Source of the DNA: an uncultured Clostridia bacterium
Lineage (GTDB): Bacteria; Bacillota; Clostridia; TANB77; CAG-508
Direction: 5' to 3'
DNA: 32,000 nucleotides
Assembly: GCA_944390445.1 (NCBI GenBank)
Contig: CALXQB010000004.1
Coordinates: forward strand, 1,848 to 33,847
Below, piece after piece: positions 5,089 through 26,251 of this stretch. The position numbers and the translations under genes were made by a program. The stretch's first letter is position 1, and every line of letters starts with the position of its first letter. The notes under the pieces were generated by a model. That model was given only the letters and a program-made list of their open reading frames with translations. It was not told where the DNA came from and ran no database searches.

Positions 5089-5110
5089 GGGTCGGCGAGG
5101 GCGCCGACCC
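5089..5110. repeat. GC-rich hairpin gggtcggcg-aggg-cgccgaccc (REP-like family member without GTAG head)
   Basis: 9-bp GC stem, same stem family as the elements at 11311, 12924, 22826 and 24782. Confidence 0.6.
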
Positions 5111-5175
5111 AATGTCGTCAATTTAAGGCTGTAATTAGCCAAAATAGCTAATTACAGCCTTAAATTGACGACATT
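5111..5175. repeat. Perfect 29-bp inverted repeat with 7-nt loop
   Basis: aatgtcgtcaatttaaggctgtaattagc / caaaata / gctaattacagccttaaattgacgacatt, exact reverse complement. Confidence 0.9.
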
Positions 5176-6553: not shown

Positions 6554-6583
6554 AATATTAAAAATCCAAAATATTATGTAACG

Positions 6584-6712
6584 TTTTGACATGCCTATAA
6601 CATATATTTTTCAACAAAACTCTCAAGGTTCAAAGGAGTAATCCGTGAACAGCAGGTGTGTTCGAGCTTTTGTTTCAAAATATATGTATAGGCATGTCAA
6701 AATTTTTATTTT
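6584..6712 (+). ncRNA. Conserved structured element, copy 1 (long hairpin plus U-tract, candidate cis-regulatory RNA or terminator)
   Basis: A 26-bp outer stem (6584-6610 / 6677-6702) encloses the conserved core aaaactctcaaggttcaa.gg.gtaatccg...tgttcgagctttt.tttc. It is followed by tttttatttt. A second copy lies at 20961-21085. Confidence 0.5.
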
Positions 6713-6731
6713 GAAAAGAAAGGACAAAAAA

Positions 6732-8543
6732 GTGAAGCAAGAAAATATTAGAAATTTTAGCATAATTGCCCATATTGACCATGGAAAATCAACACTAGCG
6801 GATAGGCTAATTGAATTAACAGGAGTATTATCAAAAAGAGAAATGGAAAGTCAAGTATTAGATAATATGGACTTAGAAAAAGAACGTGGAATTACCATTA
6901 AAGCACAGGCAGTAAGAATGCAATATCAAGCAAAAAATGGAGAAACCTATATTTTTAATCTAATTGACACGCCTGGGCATGTAGATTTTAACTATGAAGT
7001 ATCTAGAAGTTTAGCTGCTTGTGAGGGTGCTATTTTAGTAGTAGACAGTAGCCAAGGGATTGAAGCGCAAACATTAGCTAATGTGTATTTAGCATTAGAT
7101 AATAATCTAGAAATTTTACCTGTTATCAATAAAATAGATTTACCAAATGCAAGACCAGAAGAAGTAAAAAAAGAAATAGAAGATATTATTGGTTTACCAG
7201 CACAAGACTGCCCTTGTATTTCTGCCAAAACAGGTTTAAATGTGGAGGAAGTACTAGAAAGAATTGTAACAGACTTTACGGCACCAAAAGGCAATAAAGA
7301 AAATCCACTAAAATGCTTAATTTTTGATTCCTTTTATGATAATTATAAAGGAGCTATTAGTTACGTAAGAGTAAAAGAAGGAACGGTAAAACCTGGGGAT
7401 GAAATACTATTTATGGCTACCAATAAAAAATTTGTGGTAACAGAAGTGGGATACTTTGAACCTGGAACTTATCAAGAGACGGACAAGCTGGAAGCAGGAG
7501 AAGTGGGATATATTGCAGCAAGTGTAAAAAATGTAGCGGACTTACATGTGGGAGATACCATTACTTCTAGTCAAAATCCAGCAAAAGAGCCATTACCAGG
7601 ATATAAAAAAGCAGTGCCTATGGTATATTGTGGTATGTATCCTCTAGATGGTAGTGACTACGAAAATTTAAAAACTGCATTAGAAAAATTGAAATTGAAT
7701 GATGCAGCACTAGAATACGAACCTGAAACATCTATTGCGTTAGGATTTGGATTTCGTTGTGGATTTTTAGGATTATTACATCTAGAAATTATCACAGAAA
7801 GATTAGATAGAGAGTTTGGATTAGGCTTAATTGCAACTGCTCCATCTGTAATCTATAAGGTTCATAAAACAAATGGCGAAATTATGGATTTATATAATCC
7901 AGTAGATTTACCAAAAACACAAGAAATCGATTATATTGAAGAACCAATTGTAAAAGCAGAAATTATGTTACCAAAAGAATATGTAGGAAATGTAATGGAA
8001 ATCTGCCAAAATAGGAGAGGAACCTATTTGGATATGAAATATTTGGACACCAATCGCGTCACTCTAGAATATGATCTACCGCTAAATGAAATTATCTATG
8101 ATTTTTTTGATGCCCTAAAATCAAAGACAAAGGGATATGCTTCTTTTGATTATGAATTTAAAGAATATAGAAAATCAAATTTAGTAAAATTAGATATTCA
8201 TATTAATGGAGAGCCAGTAGATGCATTGTCTTTTATTGTGCATAAAGATACTGCATATACAAGAGGAAAAAAGATGGTAGAAAAATTAAAAACAGTAATT
8301 CCAAGGCAATTATTTGAAATACCACTCCAAGCTGTAATAGGGGGAAAAATCATTGCAAGAGAAACAATATCAGCTATGAGAAAAGATGTACTTGCCAAAT
8401 GTTATGGTGGAGATATTACAAGAAAAAAGAAGTTATTAGAAAAACAAAAAGAAGGTAAAAAGAAAATGAGACAGGTAGGAAATGTGGAAATTCCACAAGA
8501 AGCATTTTTGAGTGTATTAAAATTGGAAGATGATAAAAGATAG
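6732..8543 (+). CDS. lepA: Elongation factor 4 (LepA)
   Basis: [29 protein letters not shown] and the LepA C-terminal domain. I chose the GTG 6732 start. The upstream ORF extension overlaps the structured element and is not LepA-like. Confidence 0.95.
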
Positions 8544-8566
8544 TGTAAAGTAATTTATGAAAAAAT

Positions 8567-8588
8567 GTAGGGGCGATTTTAATCGCCC
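8567..8588 (+). repeat. GTAG-headed GC-rich palindrome (REP-like)
   Basis: gtag + gggcgatt/aatcgccc, followed by the palindromic linker ttcttcgaagaa that is also seen in the clusters upstream of the pilin-like genes. Confidence 0.65.
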
Positions 8589-8635
8589 GTTCTTCGAAGA
8601 AATTACTTAAAACAATATTATAGAAAGGAATAAAA

Positions 8636-9376
8636 ATGAAAGAAGAATACATAGATAAAATAGAAGGAAGGAACCCAGTTTTAGAATTACTAAATTCTAC
8701 TAGAGATGTTAATAAAATTCTAATTCAAAAAGGAGAAAAACATGGTTCCATACTGAAAATCATGGCGATTGCGAAAGAGAAAAAAATCATGATAACAGAA
8801 ATTGAAAAAAGAAAATTAGACGAAATAGCAGAAACTCCAAATCATCAAGGTGTTATTGCAATCGTTCCTCCATTTAATTACTGTGAAGTAGAAGATATTC
8901 TATCCTACGCAAAAGAAAGAAATGAAGAACCTTTTATTGTTATTTTGGATGGGATAGAAGATCCACATAATTTAGGCTCTATTATTAGAACAGCAGAAAC
9001 AGCAGGAGTACACGGAATCATTATTCCCAAAAGAAGAGCAGCTACTGTAAATGCAACTGTATATAAAACATCTGCAGGAGCTGTGGAACATATGAAAGTG
9101 GCAAGAGTCAACAATTTAGTAGATACGATACGATATTTAAAAGAACAAGGATTGTGGATATACGGAACAGATGGAGAAGCAAAAACAGAATATACAAAGG
9201 CAAATTTAACAGGACCAATTGCAATTGTAATTGGAAGTGAAGGTTATGGAATGAGTAGATTAGTAAAAGAAAACTGTGATGGCTTAATAAAAATACCGAT
9301 GAAAGGGAAAATAACTTCTCTAAATGCTTCAGTTTCAGCAGCCATTGTCATGTATGAAGTGGTAAGAGAAAAATAG
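8636..9376 (+). CDS. rlmB: 23S rRNA (guanosine-2'-O)-methyltransferase RlmB-like (SpoU/TrmH family)
   Basis: SpoU substrate-binding N-terminal domain. Motifs DPHNLGSIIRTA, GSEG.G and IPM.G...SLNASV. Confidence 0.85.
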   Translation: MKEEYIDKIEGRNPVLELLNSTRDVNKILIQKGEKHGSILKIMAIAKEKKIMITEIEKRKLDEIAETPNHQGVIAIVPPFNYCEVEDILSYAKERNEEPFIVILDGIEDPHNLGSIIRTAETAGVHGIIIPKRRAATVNATVYKTSAGAVEHMKVARVNNLVDTIRYLKEQGLWIYGTDGEAKTEYTKANLTGPIAIVIGSEGYGMSRLVKENCDGLIKIPMKGKITSLNASVSAAIVMYEVVREK

Positions 9377-20851: not shown

Positions 20852-20878
20852 TCAGGCTGTGGTATTACCACAGCCTGA
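20852..20878 (+). terminator. Hairpin terminator after the phoH-like gene
   Basis: tcaggctgtgg/ccacagcctga stem. The T tail is weak. Confidence 0.5.
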
Positions 20879-20960
20879 TAACTTTTCCTTTATAGGGAAT
20901 TGCATTTCCTATTATTGAATAGAAAACAATATAAAGTGAAAATAAAATATAAGAGATTTT

Positions 20961-21085
20961 ATCCCACTCATGAACTTATATTTTTCCATAAAACTCTCAA
21001 GGTTCAAGGGGTAATCCGGCAGCGGAAGGCTGTTCGAGCTTTTATTTCAAAATATAAGTTCATGAGTGGGATATACGAAACTTTT
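20961..21085 (+). ncRNA. Conserved structured element, copy 2
   Basis: A perfect 24-bp outer stem (20961-20984 / 21049-21072) has a different sequence from copy 1 but encloses the same core, followed by ctttttatttt. Confidence 0.5.
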
Positions 21086-21225
21086 TATTTTCAAAAGAAA
21101 AATCACTTTACTTATTCAACCCCAAAATAATATTACACAGAAATATTTGTCACATTTTGTCTAAAAAAACATACAATATAATAGAGAATAAAAGTTCTCA
21201 AAATTTTAAAGAAAAGGTGATAAAT

Positions 21226-21667: not shown

Positions 21668-21697
21668 GTAGGGGCTCGTCTTGACGAGCCCTTTTAT
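21668..21697 (+). terminator. GTAG-headed REP-like palindrome acting as terminator
   Basis: gtag + gggctcgtcttgacgagccc + ttttatt. The sequence is identical to the element at 13019-13042. Confidence 0.6.
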
Positions 21698-22673: not shown

Positions 22674-22694
22674 TAAATACCTAATGGAACTGAG

Positions 22695-22787
22695 AGAGGT
22701 GACAGAGATTTTGACAGCATTTCAAACATATATAATTTCAGATTTTTATAAAATTATTGAAATACTGTCAAAATCTCTGTCACCTCT
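22695..22787. repeat. Long inverted repeat (23-bp perfect arms, ~47-nt spacer)
   Basis: agaggtgacagagattttgacag ... ctgtcaaaatctctgtcacctct. The inner atttcaa/ttgaaat extends the pairing. Confidence 0.85.
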
Positions 22788-22821
22788 GTGAGTAATTATT
22801 CACAATTCATCAAAGATATGT

Positions 22822-22848
22822 GTAGGGTGTCGGCGCCATCGCCGACCC
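22822..22848 (+). repeat. GTAG-headed REP-like palindrome
   Basis: gtag + ggtgtcggcgccatcgccgaccc, preceded by the aattattcac.attcat motif seen in the leader modules. Confidence 0.65.
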
Positions 22849-24451: not shown

Positions 24452-24541
24452 AAAAATATACTAAATTAATATTTGATAACTAATTTGTAAAACGAAATTT
24501 TTATTATAAAGAAATAACCTAACAAAAGGGAGGAACAAGAA

Positions 24542-24604
24542 ATGAACAAAAGCGGAAAACGTTGGGAGAGTAACACACACACACACACACACGATATAAT
24601 TTAA
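24542..24604 (+). CDS. sORF C: MNKSGKRWESN(TH)3DII
   Basis: GGGAGG RBS, with (AC)10 at 24573-24592. It keeps the same frame and the same C-terminus as sORFs A and B. Confidence 0.5.
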   Translation: MNKSGKRWESNTHTHTHDII

Positions 24605-24625
24605 TAAAAAAGGAAATAAATCGGA

Positions 24626-24675
24626 ACTATCCATTTCGAGTGTAATTATTATGCTCGAGATGGGTAGTCTTTTTA
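24626..24675 (+). terminator. Intrinsic terminator after sORF C
   Basis: Stem identical to those of modules A and B, followed by cttttta. Confidence 0.7.
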
Positions 24676-24777
24676 TGTTTAATGAATAATGAAGAATGAA
24701 TAATACATAAAAATATATTTTGCACGAAAATTATTCATTATTAATTATTCACTATTCATTATTCATTAAAAATATAT

Positions 24778-24853
24778 GTAGGGTGTCGGCGCCCACGCCG
24801 ACCCATGCTACGAAGAAATTTCTTAAAATGTAGGGGCTGGTCTTGACCAGCCC
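24778..24853 (+). repeat. REP-like cluster C: two GTAG-headed palindromes
   Basis: Elements 24778-24804 and 24830-24853, joined by the linker atgctacgaagaaatttcttaaaat. Confidence 0.7.
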
Positions 24854-24937
24854 AGAGAGAAAGAACCGCCCAAATGAGACAGTTTTGTCTCAAACGGAAG
24901 CGTCCCAAATGGGACAGAAACGGAGGAAAAAGGAAAG

Positions 24938-26251
24938 ATGAAAAAACAAAAAAGAAGAAAAGAAAAAGGAATCACCCTAGTGGCATTAGTGGTAACCATA
25001 ATTGTGCTAATTATCTTAGCAGGAGTTACCTTAAATATTGTATTAGACCAAAATGGAATTATCAATAAAGCACAACAGGCGACAGAAGATTATGATACTG
25101 CGCAAAGAGAAGAACAAGAATTATTAGGAGTAGTAGAAGACTATATAGAATATGCAGGAAAAACAGCACCAATACCAGGAGGATATACAGTATCCCAAAT
25201 AACAACAGAAGATGATGTGGCAGAAGGATTAGTTATATATGAAATACCAGAAGGAGCAACAGTAGATTGGGAAAATCAAACAATCACTATAGAGGGAAGC
25301 ACAACAAATTTGCAACAAACAGTAGACCAATATGTATGGATACCAGTAGATGATATCAATAGTATGGTAATGTGTAAAAGTAATAGTGGAGATAGTGTAT
25401 GTAATTTAGTATATGATAAAAGTACAAACACATTAACATGCACAAATCCAGACCATTTGGATACTGCAACAGAATTAGTAGGAAGATTATATACAAGTTC
25501 ATTTGTAAATACAGGCAATAACATTTATTCCGAGACTATGGACTTTACAAAAAGGGACCAGACATACGAAGATGATAGTGGCTTACGTGAACCAGATGAT
25601 TTAACAGCTACTGATGCGGGAGATGCAAGTTCAAGGGGTATAGCGGCAATAAAAGAGATACTAGGAAATGATACTGCAAGTACATATGATGAAATAAAAG
25701 ATGAATGGAATAATTTACTAAAAGAAGATTTTAGAAAAATGGCAACCAGTGTCGCAAAAAATGGAGGATTTTATATCAGCAGATATGAAGTAGGAGCAAA
25801 TGGAGGAAGTAAAAAAGGACAACAGGTTCTGACAGAAGGTAGTGGTAATGAAGGAAATTCTTTAGGGGCAAATATGTGGTATGGATTGTTTAATATATTA
25901 AGAGATATTAACAATAACCAACAAATGATATGGGGATGTCAATATGATCAAGTTATCAAATTCATAGGAGAAGAAGCACAAATAGGGCATAGTGATAGAA
26001 ATTTAACAACAAGTGCAGCTTTAACTGGACAAAACGAATTAGATAAAATGAAAAATATCTATGACCTTGAAGGAAATTGTTATGAAGTTACATCAGAAGC
26101 AGAGGTTACAAGAACACGACTTGTACGAGGAGGTGGTTTCGATATTATATCAGGAGGATTCTTTCCGGCTAGTGTTCGTTTAGTGATGTTAGCTAACCCA
26201 CCAGTTGCTTCGAACCTCAACATAACCACTTCACGTTCTACACTTTATTGA
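24938..26251 (+). CDS. Pilin-like-N-terminus / FGE(SUMF1)-like domain protein, paralog C
   Basis: The first ~110 aa are nearly identical to paralog B. It has FYISRYEVG, IWGCQYDQV, IYDLEGNCYEV, RLVRGGGF and a terminal TSRSTLY. Confidence 0.85.
   Translation: MKKQKRRKEKGITLVALVVTIIVLIILAGVTLNIVLDQNGIINKAQQATEDYDTAQREEQELLGVVEDYIEYAGKTAPIPGGYTVSQITTEDDVAEGLVIYEIPEGATVDWENQTITIEGSTTNLQQTVDQYVWIPVDDINSMVMCKSNSGDSVCNLVYDKSTNTLTCTNPDHLDTATELVGRLYTSSFVNTGNNIYSETMDFTKRDQTYEDDSGLREPDDLTATDAGDASSRGIAAIKEILGNDTASTYDEIKDEWNNLLKEDFRKMATSVAKNGGFYISRYEVGANGGSKKGQQVLTEGSGNEGNSLGANMWYGLFNILRDINNNQQMIWGCQYDQVIKFIGEEAQIGHSDRNLTTSAALTGQNELDKMKNIYDLEGNCYEVTSEAEVTRTRLVRGGGFDIISGGFFPASVRLVMLANPPVASNLNITTSRSTLY

Follow-up and report, generated by a model that had tools for sequence, protein, structure and literature searches.

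Small non-coding intergenic repeats of palindromic or MITE-like build (MITE, miniature inverted-repeat transposable element) include the ERIC/IRU, Correia (NEMIS/CREE), RUP and BOX elements and the bcr1-type repeats of Bacillus cereus. Here we analyze a palindromic element that occurs twice in a 32,000-nt stretch of DNA, called the window below, from an uncultured Clostridia bacterium (GenBank assembly GCA_944390445.1, contig CALXQB010000004.1, positions 1,848 to 33,847 of the forward strand). Copy 1 lies between ctpA and lepA, copy 2 between a PIN/PhoH gene and a gene for a 140-aa protein, and each consists of two long complementary arms around an asymmetric center. With a probability of roughly 0.6, we consider the element to be a lineage-specific interspersed palindromic DNA repeat, similar to MITEs, BIMEs (bacterial interspersed mosaic elements) or ERIC and often forming the center of mosaic composites, and not a dedicated cis-regulatory RNA of lepA.

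The element resembles the families named above in that it is about 100 to 250 nt long, non-coding, present in tens of copies, strictly intergenic and found in either orientation, in that it is present or absent depending on the strain, would form long hairpins if transcribed, and has subfamilies and internal deletions. ERIC likewise has a conserved central inverted repeat, and BOX and BIME are likewise mosaics of modules. Unlike those families, to which it has no sequence similarity, it is hosted by an uncultured gut Clostridia lineage, no target-site duplication or autonomous partner was found at the sites and in the DNA examined, and its most conserved parts are the asymmetric center and inner stem, with distal arms that differ by subfamily and a center that occurs in both orientations. 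With BIME and REP (repetitive extragenic palindrome) sequences it shares inverted palindromic units around a conserved linker and a strain-variable intergenic position, often after terminators; moreover, the same genomes carry true REP-like GC-rich hairpins after GTAG as alternative alleles of the same spacers. REPs associated with RAYT typically stand out by such a GTAG head. The element itself, however, is AT-rich with 25-bp arms rather than a short GC-rich REP with a 5' GTAG, and identity with REP or BIME was rejected on these grounds.

Results

The sequence-only reading of the window had noticed two copies with a common core and 3' tail. Both were found, at 6584-6702 and 20960-21073, with a shared center of 64 to 66 nt; 0 chance matches are expected for the 30-nt core pattern, and the tail occurs three times against an expectation of 0.04. 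The element belongs to a larger family. A scan of one genome per species with the pattern CTCTCAAGGTTCA-N20-50-GTTCGAGC returned 24 matches that all lie in one metagenome-assembled genome (MAG), "uncultured Clostridia bacterium BRZ_BL bin74," and three evident chance matches in GC-rich genomes. The same pattern found 11 copies in metagenome contigs, all from assembly ERZ779866, which evidently represents the same population as bin74. Because both scans required an exact match to 21 core bases, and thus missed diverged copies such as strain variants, the invariance of the core is partly by construction. A covariance model built from 26 copies added two more degenerate copies, one of which has lost its stem, to give a total of at least 26 in the bin74 MAG; one deletion derivative without the core was also present. 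In viral contigs, the 22 matches to a relaxed form of the core pattern were all due to chance and lay in coding DNA, and the plasmid collection held no match to the core pattern.

All copies are intergenic, and the genes beside them are unrelated and point either way. Many copies of class A (defined below) lie between convergent genes, and several MAG copies, like copy 2, directly follow a canonical terminator and lie upstream of the next promoter-like site.

The outer stems of the two window copies had been described as unrelated in sequence. They do differ, but across an alignment of 45 copies the arms form a graded series of related variants that all end in ..AC-N-TATATTTT. Three groups can be distinguished: class A (arm TCAACCATATATACC), class B (arms TATCCAACCCATGAAC, TCCGGCTCATGACC and, in copy 2, TATCCCACTCATGAAC) and singletons, which include copy 1. 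The arm of copy 2 is an ordinary member of one subfamily, and the arms looked unrelated because members of two different subfamilies were compared. Class A and class B copies form the centers of larger palindromic composites of about 200 to 340 nt, with subfamily-specific modules and ends that resemble terminal inverted repeats (TIRs; AATGTCATTAAGTTAAGG in class A, ATAGGAAAC/GTTTCCTAT in class B); one of the modules is also found alone. An element of about 115 nt is present as proposed, but the conserved unit is larger, copy 2 being embedded in a composite of about 234 nt. The description of the element as the opposite of a MITE is misleading, since the hairpin lies within composites that bear terminal inverted repeats of their own.

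The repeat resides between the genes of an uncultured, low-GC lineage of human-gut Clostridia, and it is gained, lost or swapped among strains. The window LepA has an exact match in an ENA gut metagenome contig. In nine of the ten fetched contigs with 98%-identical LepA, the ctpA-lepA spacer is 97 nt long and contains two GC-rich REP-like hairpins; the element-bearing spacer of 178 nt is found in L069 only among those ten, and also in the window and in L065. The swap begins about 8 nt before the variable block listed in Table 1, within the last ctpA codons (about 6546), and ends before GAAAGGACAAAAAAGTG, just 5' of the lepA ribosome-binding site. At the copy-2 site, the spacer between phoH and the 140-aa gene has three alleles of 154, 358 and 388 nt, the last being that of the window; the 154-nt allele (L084, L086 and L087) is empty and lacks the net 234-nt composite. 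In one strain (L088), a further class-B composite directly follows the 140-aa gene, at a place that a REP-like hairpin occupies in the window. No copy was found near lepA in loci from species whose LepA is 86 to 88% identical. As a route to more strains, homologues of the 140-aa protein yielded a closest cluster of just 87% identity, and an exact look-up of the window PhoH protein found no record.

In the 45-copy alignment, both sides have changed in 14 of the 23 pairs of the arm helix, and 96.4% of the cells are paired. The covariation score is 0.317, whereas shuffles give 0.114 and slid partners no more than 0.061, and every measure exceeds all controls. The outer-stem covariation proposed from two copies is therefore overwhelming in the larger set. 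The covariation proposed for the inner helix (C-G in copy 1, T-A in copy 2) is also real: it recurs between subfamilies as a swap of AU/UA to GC/CG, and the inner helix contributes two additional covarying pairs. No pair in the core helices (3 and 4) has changed on both sides.

This raises the possibility that the hairpin is kept for an RNA role, with selection acting on RNA pairing in a bidirectional terminator or insulator, an RNase III site, or a 3' or 5' hairpin that stabilizes mRNA. ERIC and Correia repeats are reported to act as such hairpins. The folds are very stable (-49.8 kcal/mol with a z-score of -7.3 for copy 1; -53.5 kcal/mol with a z-score of -8.4 for copy 2), the arms are paired almost throughout, the stem of class-B copies lies between a 5' A-tract and a 3' T-tract, and the position of many class-A copies between convergent genes would suit a terminator. 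The stem of copy 1 is followed directly by TTTTTATTTT, with no other terminator between ctpA and lepA, and its tail, which directly adjoins the stem and extends into the lepA ribosome-binding region, gives it a terminator-like look. Variants in the putative P2 hairpin (A-U to G·U, G-C to G·U, GUAA to GAAA) retain a GNRA-capped hairpin on the plus strand, a weak hint of constraint on RNA.

On the other side, the arm mismatches comprise 17 G·U and 14 A·C, a near equality that lacks the signature of an RNA strand. Single changes in P2 suit the plus strand, whereas those in P3 suit the minus strand, and pairing of the P3 variants (U to C in four copies, as well as the variant of L047b) is limited to the opposite strand. 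Mismatched arm intermediates are common among strains: 13 strain haplotypes of the copy-2 locus include one arm pair in all four states (C-G, A-T, A-G and C-T) and six polymorphic sites within the "invariant" core. Therefore, no strong purifying selection on pairing or on the core is visible in the window species. Most strains lack the element at both window sites. At copy 2 and at several MAG copies, a hairpin would be redundant, since a canonical terminator precedes it and a promoter-like site follows, and transcription through the element is doubtful. A pure hairpin function also leaves the long asymmetric core unexplained. A consensus terminator scan did not call copy 1 an intrinsic terminator, and at copy 2 it called only the canonical terminator upstream and none in the element. 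The stems of the element are AT-rich, with a "loop" of 64 nt. Taken together, we regard a selected RNA role as unlikely, even if it is the best of the alternatives. A terminator-like effect of copy 1 is possible as a side effect, and a hairpin, once transcribed, may incidentally terminate or stabilize transcripts.

The more specific proposal of a structured regulatory RNA, leader or "programmable duplex" found no support: no Rfam family matches, orientations are mixed, strains lack the element, A·C is about as frequent as G·U, and the center flips. In agreement with the remark that the core resembled no known riboswitch or leader, a search of the whole window at Rfam gathering thresholds gave 0 matches, and a search of both copies on both strands in E-value mode returned only generic long-hairpin plant miRNA models (13 to 30 bits against cut-offs of 80 to 211).

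Several other identities were considered and set aside. A cis-regulatory leader was rejected in view of the unrelated neighbors in either orientation, the loss of both window copies in conspecific strains and the position of copy 2 upstream of a promoter-like site. No tRNA or tmRNA was found; a T-loop-like GGTTCAA was considered, and no T-arm helix is possible around it. Copy alignments show no conserved start codon that would point to a small open reading frame or Shine-Dalgarno-preceded start in the core, and resemblance of the core or arms to an IHF site or DnaA box, judged by eye, is only partial. A literature search with the core sequence string found no paper.

The center of the element occurs in both orientations. 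Over a stretch of 416 nt, contig L089 matches the window at every position outside the 64-nt center of copy 2, which in L089 is the exact reverse complement. Comparisons between paralogues, which are independent of L089, give the same result: the center is reversed relative to asymmetric flanks in five cases, among them L029 (compared with L039, the same composite), L047b, L088 (3314-3435) and L026 of class A. Flipped copies are a minority, amounting to four of 15 in class B (11 to 4) and about one of 11 in class A (about 10 to 1). Because the center is found both ways round between the same arms, a strand-specific RNA motif is unlikely. In L029, a single arm mismatch has been inverted along with the center, which places the junction in the outermost 6 to 8 bp of the arm and not in the conserved inner stem.

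These flips could be programmed. If the inner stem, invariant as TTATATTTT / AAAATATAA, and possibly also the core were recognized by a site-specific recombinase, each repeat would be a miniature inverton with a 64-bp center that is flipped; the signal switched could be an outward-facing -35-like TTGAGA directed into the arm, or else an RNA or a terminator that depends on orientation, with phase variation of the neighboring genes as the outcome. Invertons are common in gut bacteria (PMC11892184, PMC11602134). Like fim, hin, the Bacteroides promoters and the RecV switches of C. difficile, the element has a segment that is bounded by inverted repeats and occurs both ways round, in a gut host, with repeats in the typical range of 20 to 30 bp. 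At one locus, going by contig L089, identical arms enclose the center in either orientation, and copies also differ from one another in this respect. Next to freely varying arm positions, the core and the inner 8 to 9 bp of the stem do not vary, as expected of a recombinase site. In addition, core variants such as the GCTAGNTAAGC form are spread mosaically across the classes, a pattern that cassette exchange at fixed sites would produce, and the minus strand of copy 1 carries the promoter-like TTGAGA-16-TATGTT.

However, L089 is the only flipped contig among 17 at the copy-2 locus, the other 16 having one orientation, and its coverage is 2.1x, so that an assembly artifact is possible for that single case. 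The strong skew in orientation among paralogues fits rare events, and in L029 the junction maps to the distal arm, away from the conserved inner stem. Candidate -10 sequences after TTGAGA-16-TAnGTn fall in the variable arm and are poor (TAAGTT, TAAGGT, TAGGTA, TAAGTA), and a promoter scan found promoter-like sites no more often than in shuffles. The putative target genes are unrelated and include the housekeeping gene lepA, and no recombinase could be linked to the element, though no dedicated recombinase search was made. With a spacer of 64 bp, the distance between the arms is very short for known invertases to achieve synapsis. Unlike known invertons, moreover, the invertible segment is this small, exists in dozens of near-identical copies without a convincing promoter, has one junction in the distal arm and is flipped in only a small minority of copies. 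Programmed inversion thus seems improbable, and marginally more so than an RNA role.

Between classes, singletons included, homology is limited to about 25 to 30 nt on each side of the core. This boundary would be expected if the mobile unit were only a module of about 80 to 95 nt (TATATTTT..core..AAAATATA, with TA ends) that inserts into the centers of pre-existing palindromes, the arms belonging to hosts such as other MITEs, terminators or loop-less palindromes. IS1397 and ISKpn1, which insert into REP loops, are a precedent for such homing; the module occurs in at least two composite backbones with different outer TIRs, one backbone-like hairpin (5111-5175 of the window) lacks it, and perfect loop-less palindromes centered on TA are present in the same genomes. 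We nevertheless consider this the least probable explanation, as in every class the pairing runs unbroken from arm into module and no remnant of a host loop is left, conservation declines gradually beyond the module edge, where positions are still semi-conserved (..AC-N-), class-B arms are clearly homologous variants with in-situ changes on both sides, no core-less hairpin with class A or class B arms was found in the 0.6 Mb or so of DNA that was fetched, apart from one deletion derivative, and the indel exceeds the module at both polymorphic sites.

Features of the two loci and other repeats

The coordinates of the two copies and their surroundings are given in Table 1. The arms of copy 1 pair over 26 bp with a single bulged A at 6600, and those of copy 2 pair perfectly over 25 bp. 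The right edge of the copy-2 composite is ambiguous by about 10 nt. As the block lies between the terminator of the upstream gene and a promoter-like site of the next gene, copy 2 need not belong to any leader.

Table 1 Features at the two copies of the palindromic element, in window coordinates
Feature	Position	Strand	Remarks
Strain-variable block of the ctpA-lepA spacer (approximate)	6554..6718	+	Most strains instead have a segment of 72 nt that contains two REP-like, GC-rich hairpins
Copy 1, 5' arm of the long inverted repeat, TTTTGACATGCCTATAACATATATTTT	6584..6610	+	Inner 8-9 nt (TATATTTT) invariant in the family; distal part copy-specific
Copy 1, center (spacer)	6611..6676	+	Inner imperfect helix CAACAAAACTC / GAGCTTTTGTTTC around the asymmetric core of ~48 nt, CTCTCAAGGTTCAAAGGAGTAATCCG...GTTCGAGC
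Copy 1, 3' arm, AAAATATATGTATAGGCATGTCAAAA	6677..6702	+	
Copy 1, T-rich 3' tail, TTTTTATTTTGAAAAGAAA	6703..6721	+	Also in class-B copies
lepA (elongation factor 4)	6732..8543	+	GTG start at 6732; context of copy 1
Canonical intrinsic terminator of the upstream PIN/PhoH gene	20852..20878	+	Composite inserted just past its T-run
Copy 2, composite block (net 234 nt)	20887..21120	+	TIR-like ATAGGGAAT..ATTTCCTAT, 5' module TTGAATAGAAAAC..GTGAAAATAAAAT, hairpin, 3' tail
Copy 2, 5' arm, TATCCCACTCATGAACTTATATTTT	20960..20984	+	
Copy 2, 64-nt center	20985..21048	+	Exact reverse complement in contig L089, between identical arms and flanks
Copy 2, 3' arm, AAAATATAAGTTCATGAGTGGGATA	21049..21073	+	
Copy 2, 3' tail, TTTTTATTTTCAAAAGAAA	21082..21100	+	Complementary to 5' module segment TGAAAATAAAA (20937-20947), extending the palindrome

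The 5' module of class-B composites (e.g., about 5945-5995 of L048; 20911-20959 of the window, with an internal deletion) contains a 16-bp palindrome, GAAACTTCnnAAGTTTC/GAAATTTC, that is operator-like in look and has been lost from several copies by deletion between ATGAA direct repeats. The core-less hairpin at 5111-5175 of the window consists of a perfectly paired stem of 29 bp and a loop of 7 nt. It begins with 18 nt, AATGTCGTCAATTTAAGG, that are similar to the outer TIR of class-A composites, and it may represent the same MITE backbone without the core-bearing hairpin. In assembly ERZ779866, L052 and L057, when compared with L030, L024 and L047, combine the left arm and flank of one copy with the right arm and flank of another, joined in the shared core. 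They could have arisen by genuine recombination between copies or, as coverage is 2x, be chimeras of the assembly, and joins of this type call for caution when such repeats are analyzed in short-read assemblies.

The REP-like hairpins form a second repeat family. These GC-rich hairpins, usually preceded by GTAG(GGG) (e.g., GTAGGGGTCGGCGCCCACGCCGACCC), are found in the window at 5089-5110, 8565-8591, 11251-11275, 11308-11333, 11401-11425, 21668-21691 and 22822-22848, and they are alternative occupants of the spacers of the AT-rich element, between ctpA and lepA and after the 140-aa gene. Just past the lepA stop codon lies a repeat of about 110 nt (8535-8645) in which the inverted repeat AAGTAATTT/AAATTACTT surrounds a REP-like hairpin; more than 10 copies with 85 to 100% identity occur in bin74 MAG loci. 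At 22689-22793 there is a long inverted repeat whose arms measure 37 nt and whose spacer measures 31 nt. It has GATTTTGACAG..ATTTCA in common with a MAG hairpin (L031, 6561-6630), and the two probably represent a further family of palindromic repeats.

The window also contains a paralogous gene family without a Pfam match (11466-12422, 13083-14504 and 24938-26251), with about 77 to 82% nucleotide identity to several bin74 loci. Each member is preceded by AT-rich repeats of the TGAATAATGAA type and by REP-like hairpins (upstream regions 10900-11600, 12659-13080 and 24520-24940); possibly, these genes encode variable surface proteins. In a sister species with 88%-identical LepA, a cluster resembling a diversity-generating retroelement lies about 5 kb upstream of lepA (L076 and L077, 1-5500) and comprises, in order, bAvd, a reverse transcriptase and a 1387-aa repeat protein; it is unrelated to the element.

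Discussion

Multiple copies in mixed orientation, polymorphism at both window sites and covariation that favors neither strand are properties of the DNA repeat proposed here, and its most unusual features can be accommodated by a process acting on DNA. Arms of about 25 bp lying 64 nt apart are a close inverted repeat, of a kind that undergoes intramolecular template switching or recombination and gene conversion. A change in one arm would then be copied to the other, and the arms would drift yet stay complementary, mimicking compensatory covariation, while the same inter-arm process would occasionally invert the asymmetric spacer to give flip and flop forms; neither arm homogenization nor spacer inversion would require an RNA function. 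Template switching has been reported to correct imperfect inverted repeats in bacteria (PMC5941160) and to generate hairpins, or preserve them, with changes that look compensatory (PMC8794818), and a third report describes inter-arm template switching that homogenizes the arms of inverted repeats and inverts the spacer (PMC8604942). Because documented template switching gives both outcomes, the co-evolution of the arms and the flips can be explained without selection on RNA. As for the near-identity of center and inner stem among the roughly 26 copies of bin74, this segment is common to all subfamilies and may owe its uniformity to recent spread, ectopic gene conversion or both.

The Ripley model of quasi-palindrome correction predicts the two unusual features of this family, arms that change and remain complementary and a spacer that inverts. 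It has been described mostly for short inverted repeats at single loci, whereas here a whole multi-copy family with 25-bp arms would be affected, and by itself it does not account for the extra conservation of the center.

Several points weigh against this interpretation. The center and the inner 8 to 9 bp of the stem are far better conserved than the distal arms and flanks, with about 97% identity over the central 95 nt or so compared with about 84% over whole composites, a difference that neutral drift alone does not predict; selection, or a protein recognition site, is a possible alternative to gene conversion as the cause. Neither polymorphic site has a clean direct target-site duplication, and no autonomous partner, in the form of split half-sites or gene-enclosing TIR pairs, was found in the 0.6 Mb or so of fetched DNA. 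To these must be added the retention of the P2 hairpin on the plus strand and the rarity and low coverage of the flipped L089 allele.

A broader alternative is that the repeats constitute an active recombination system, either as dozens of miniature invertons or exchangeable cassettes handled by a recombinase acting on TTATATTTT and the core, or as a module that homes to palindrome centers. We judge this to be as improbable as programmed inversion; if true, the recombinase would flip, and perhaps swap, the 64-bp center and thereby alter local transcription.

Our results remove a false lead. The clean and strong covariation of the hairpin would arise, on the interpretation of the element as an interspersed DNA repeat, from a palindrome whose arms co-evolve and not from a structured RNA, and this calls for caution in covariation-based discovery of non-coding RNAs in repeat-rich genomes. 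They also introduce a previously undescribed repeat family of uncultured human-gut Clostridia with flip and flop forms, arm homogenization and allele exchange with REP-like elements, which makes it a natural data set on how template switching acts and spacers invert in bacteria. Were an enzyme to drive the flipping, the family would represent an unusually small and numerous class of invertons.

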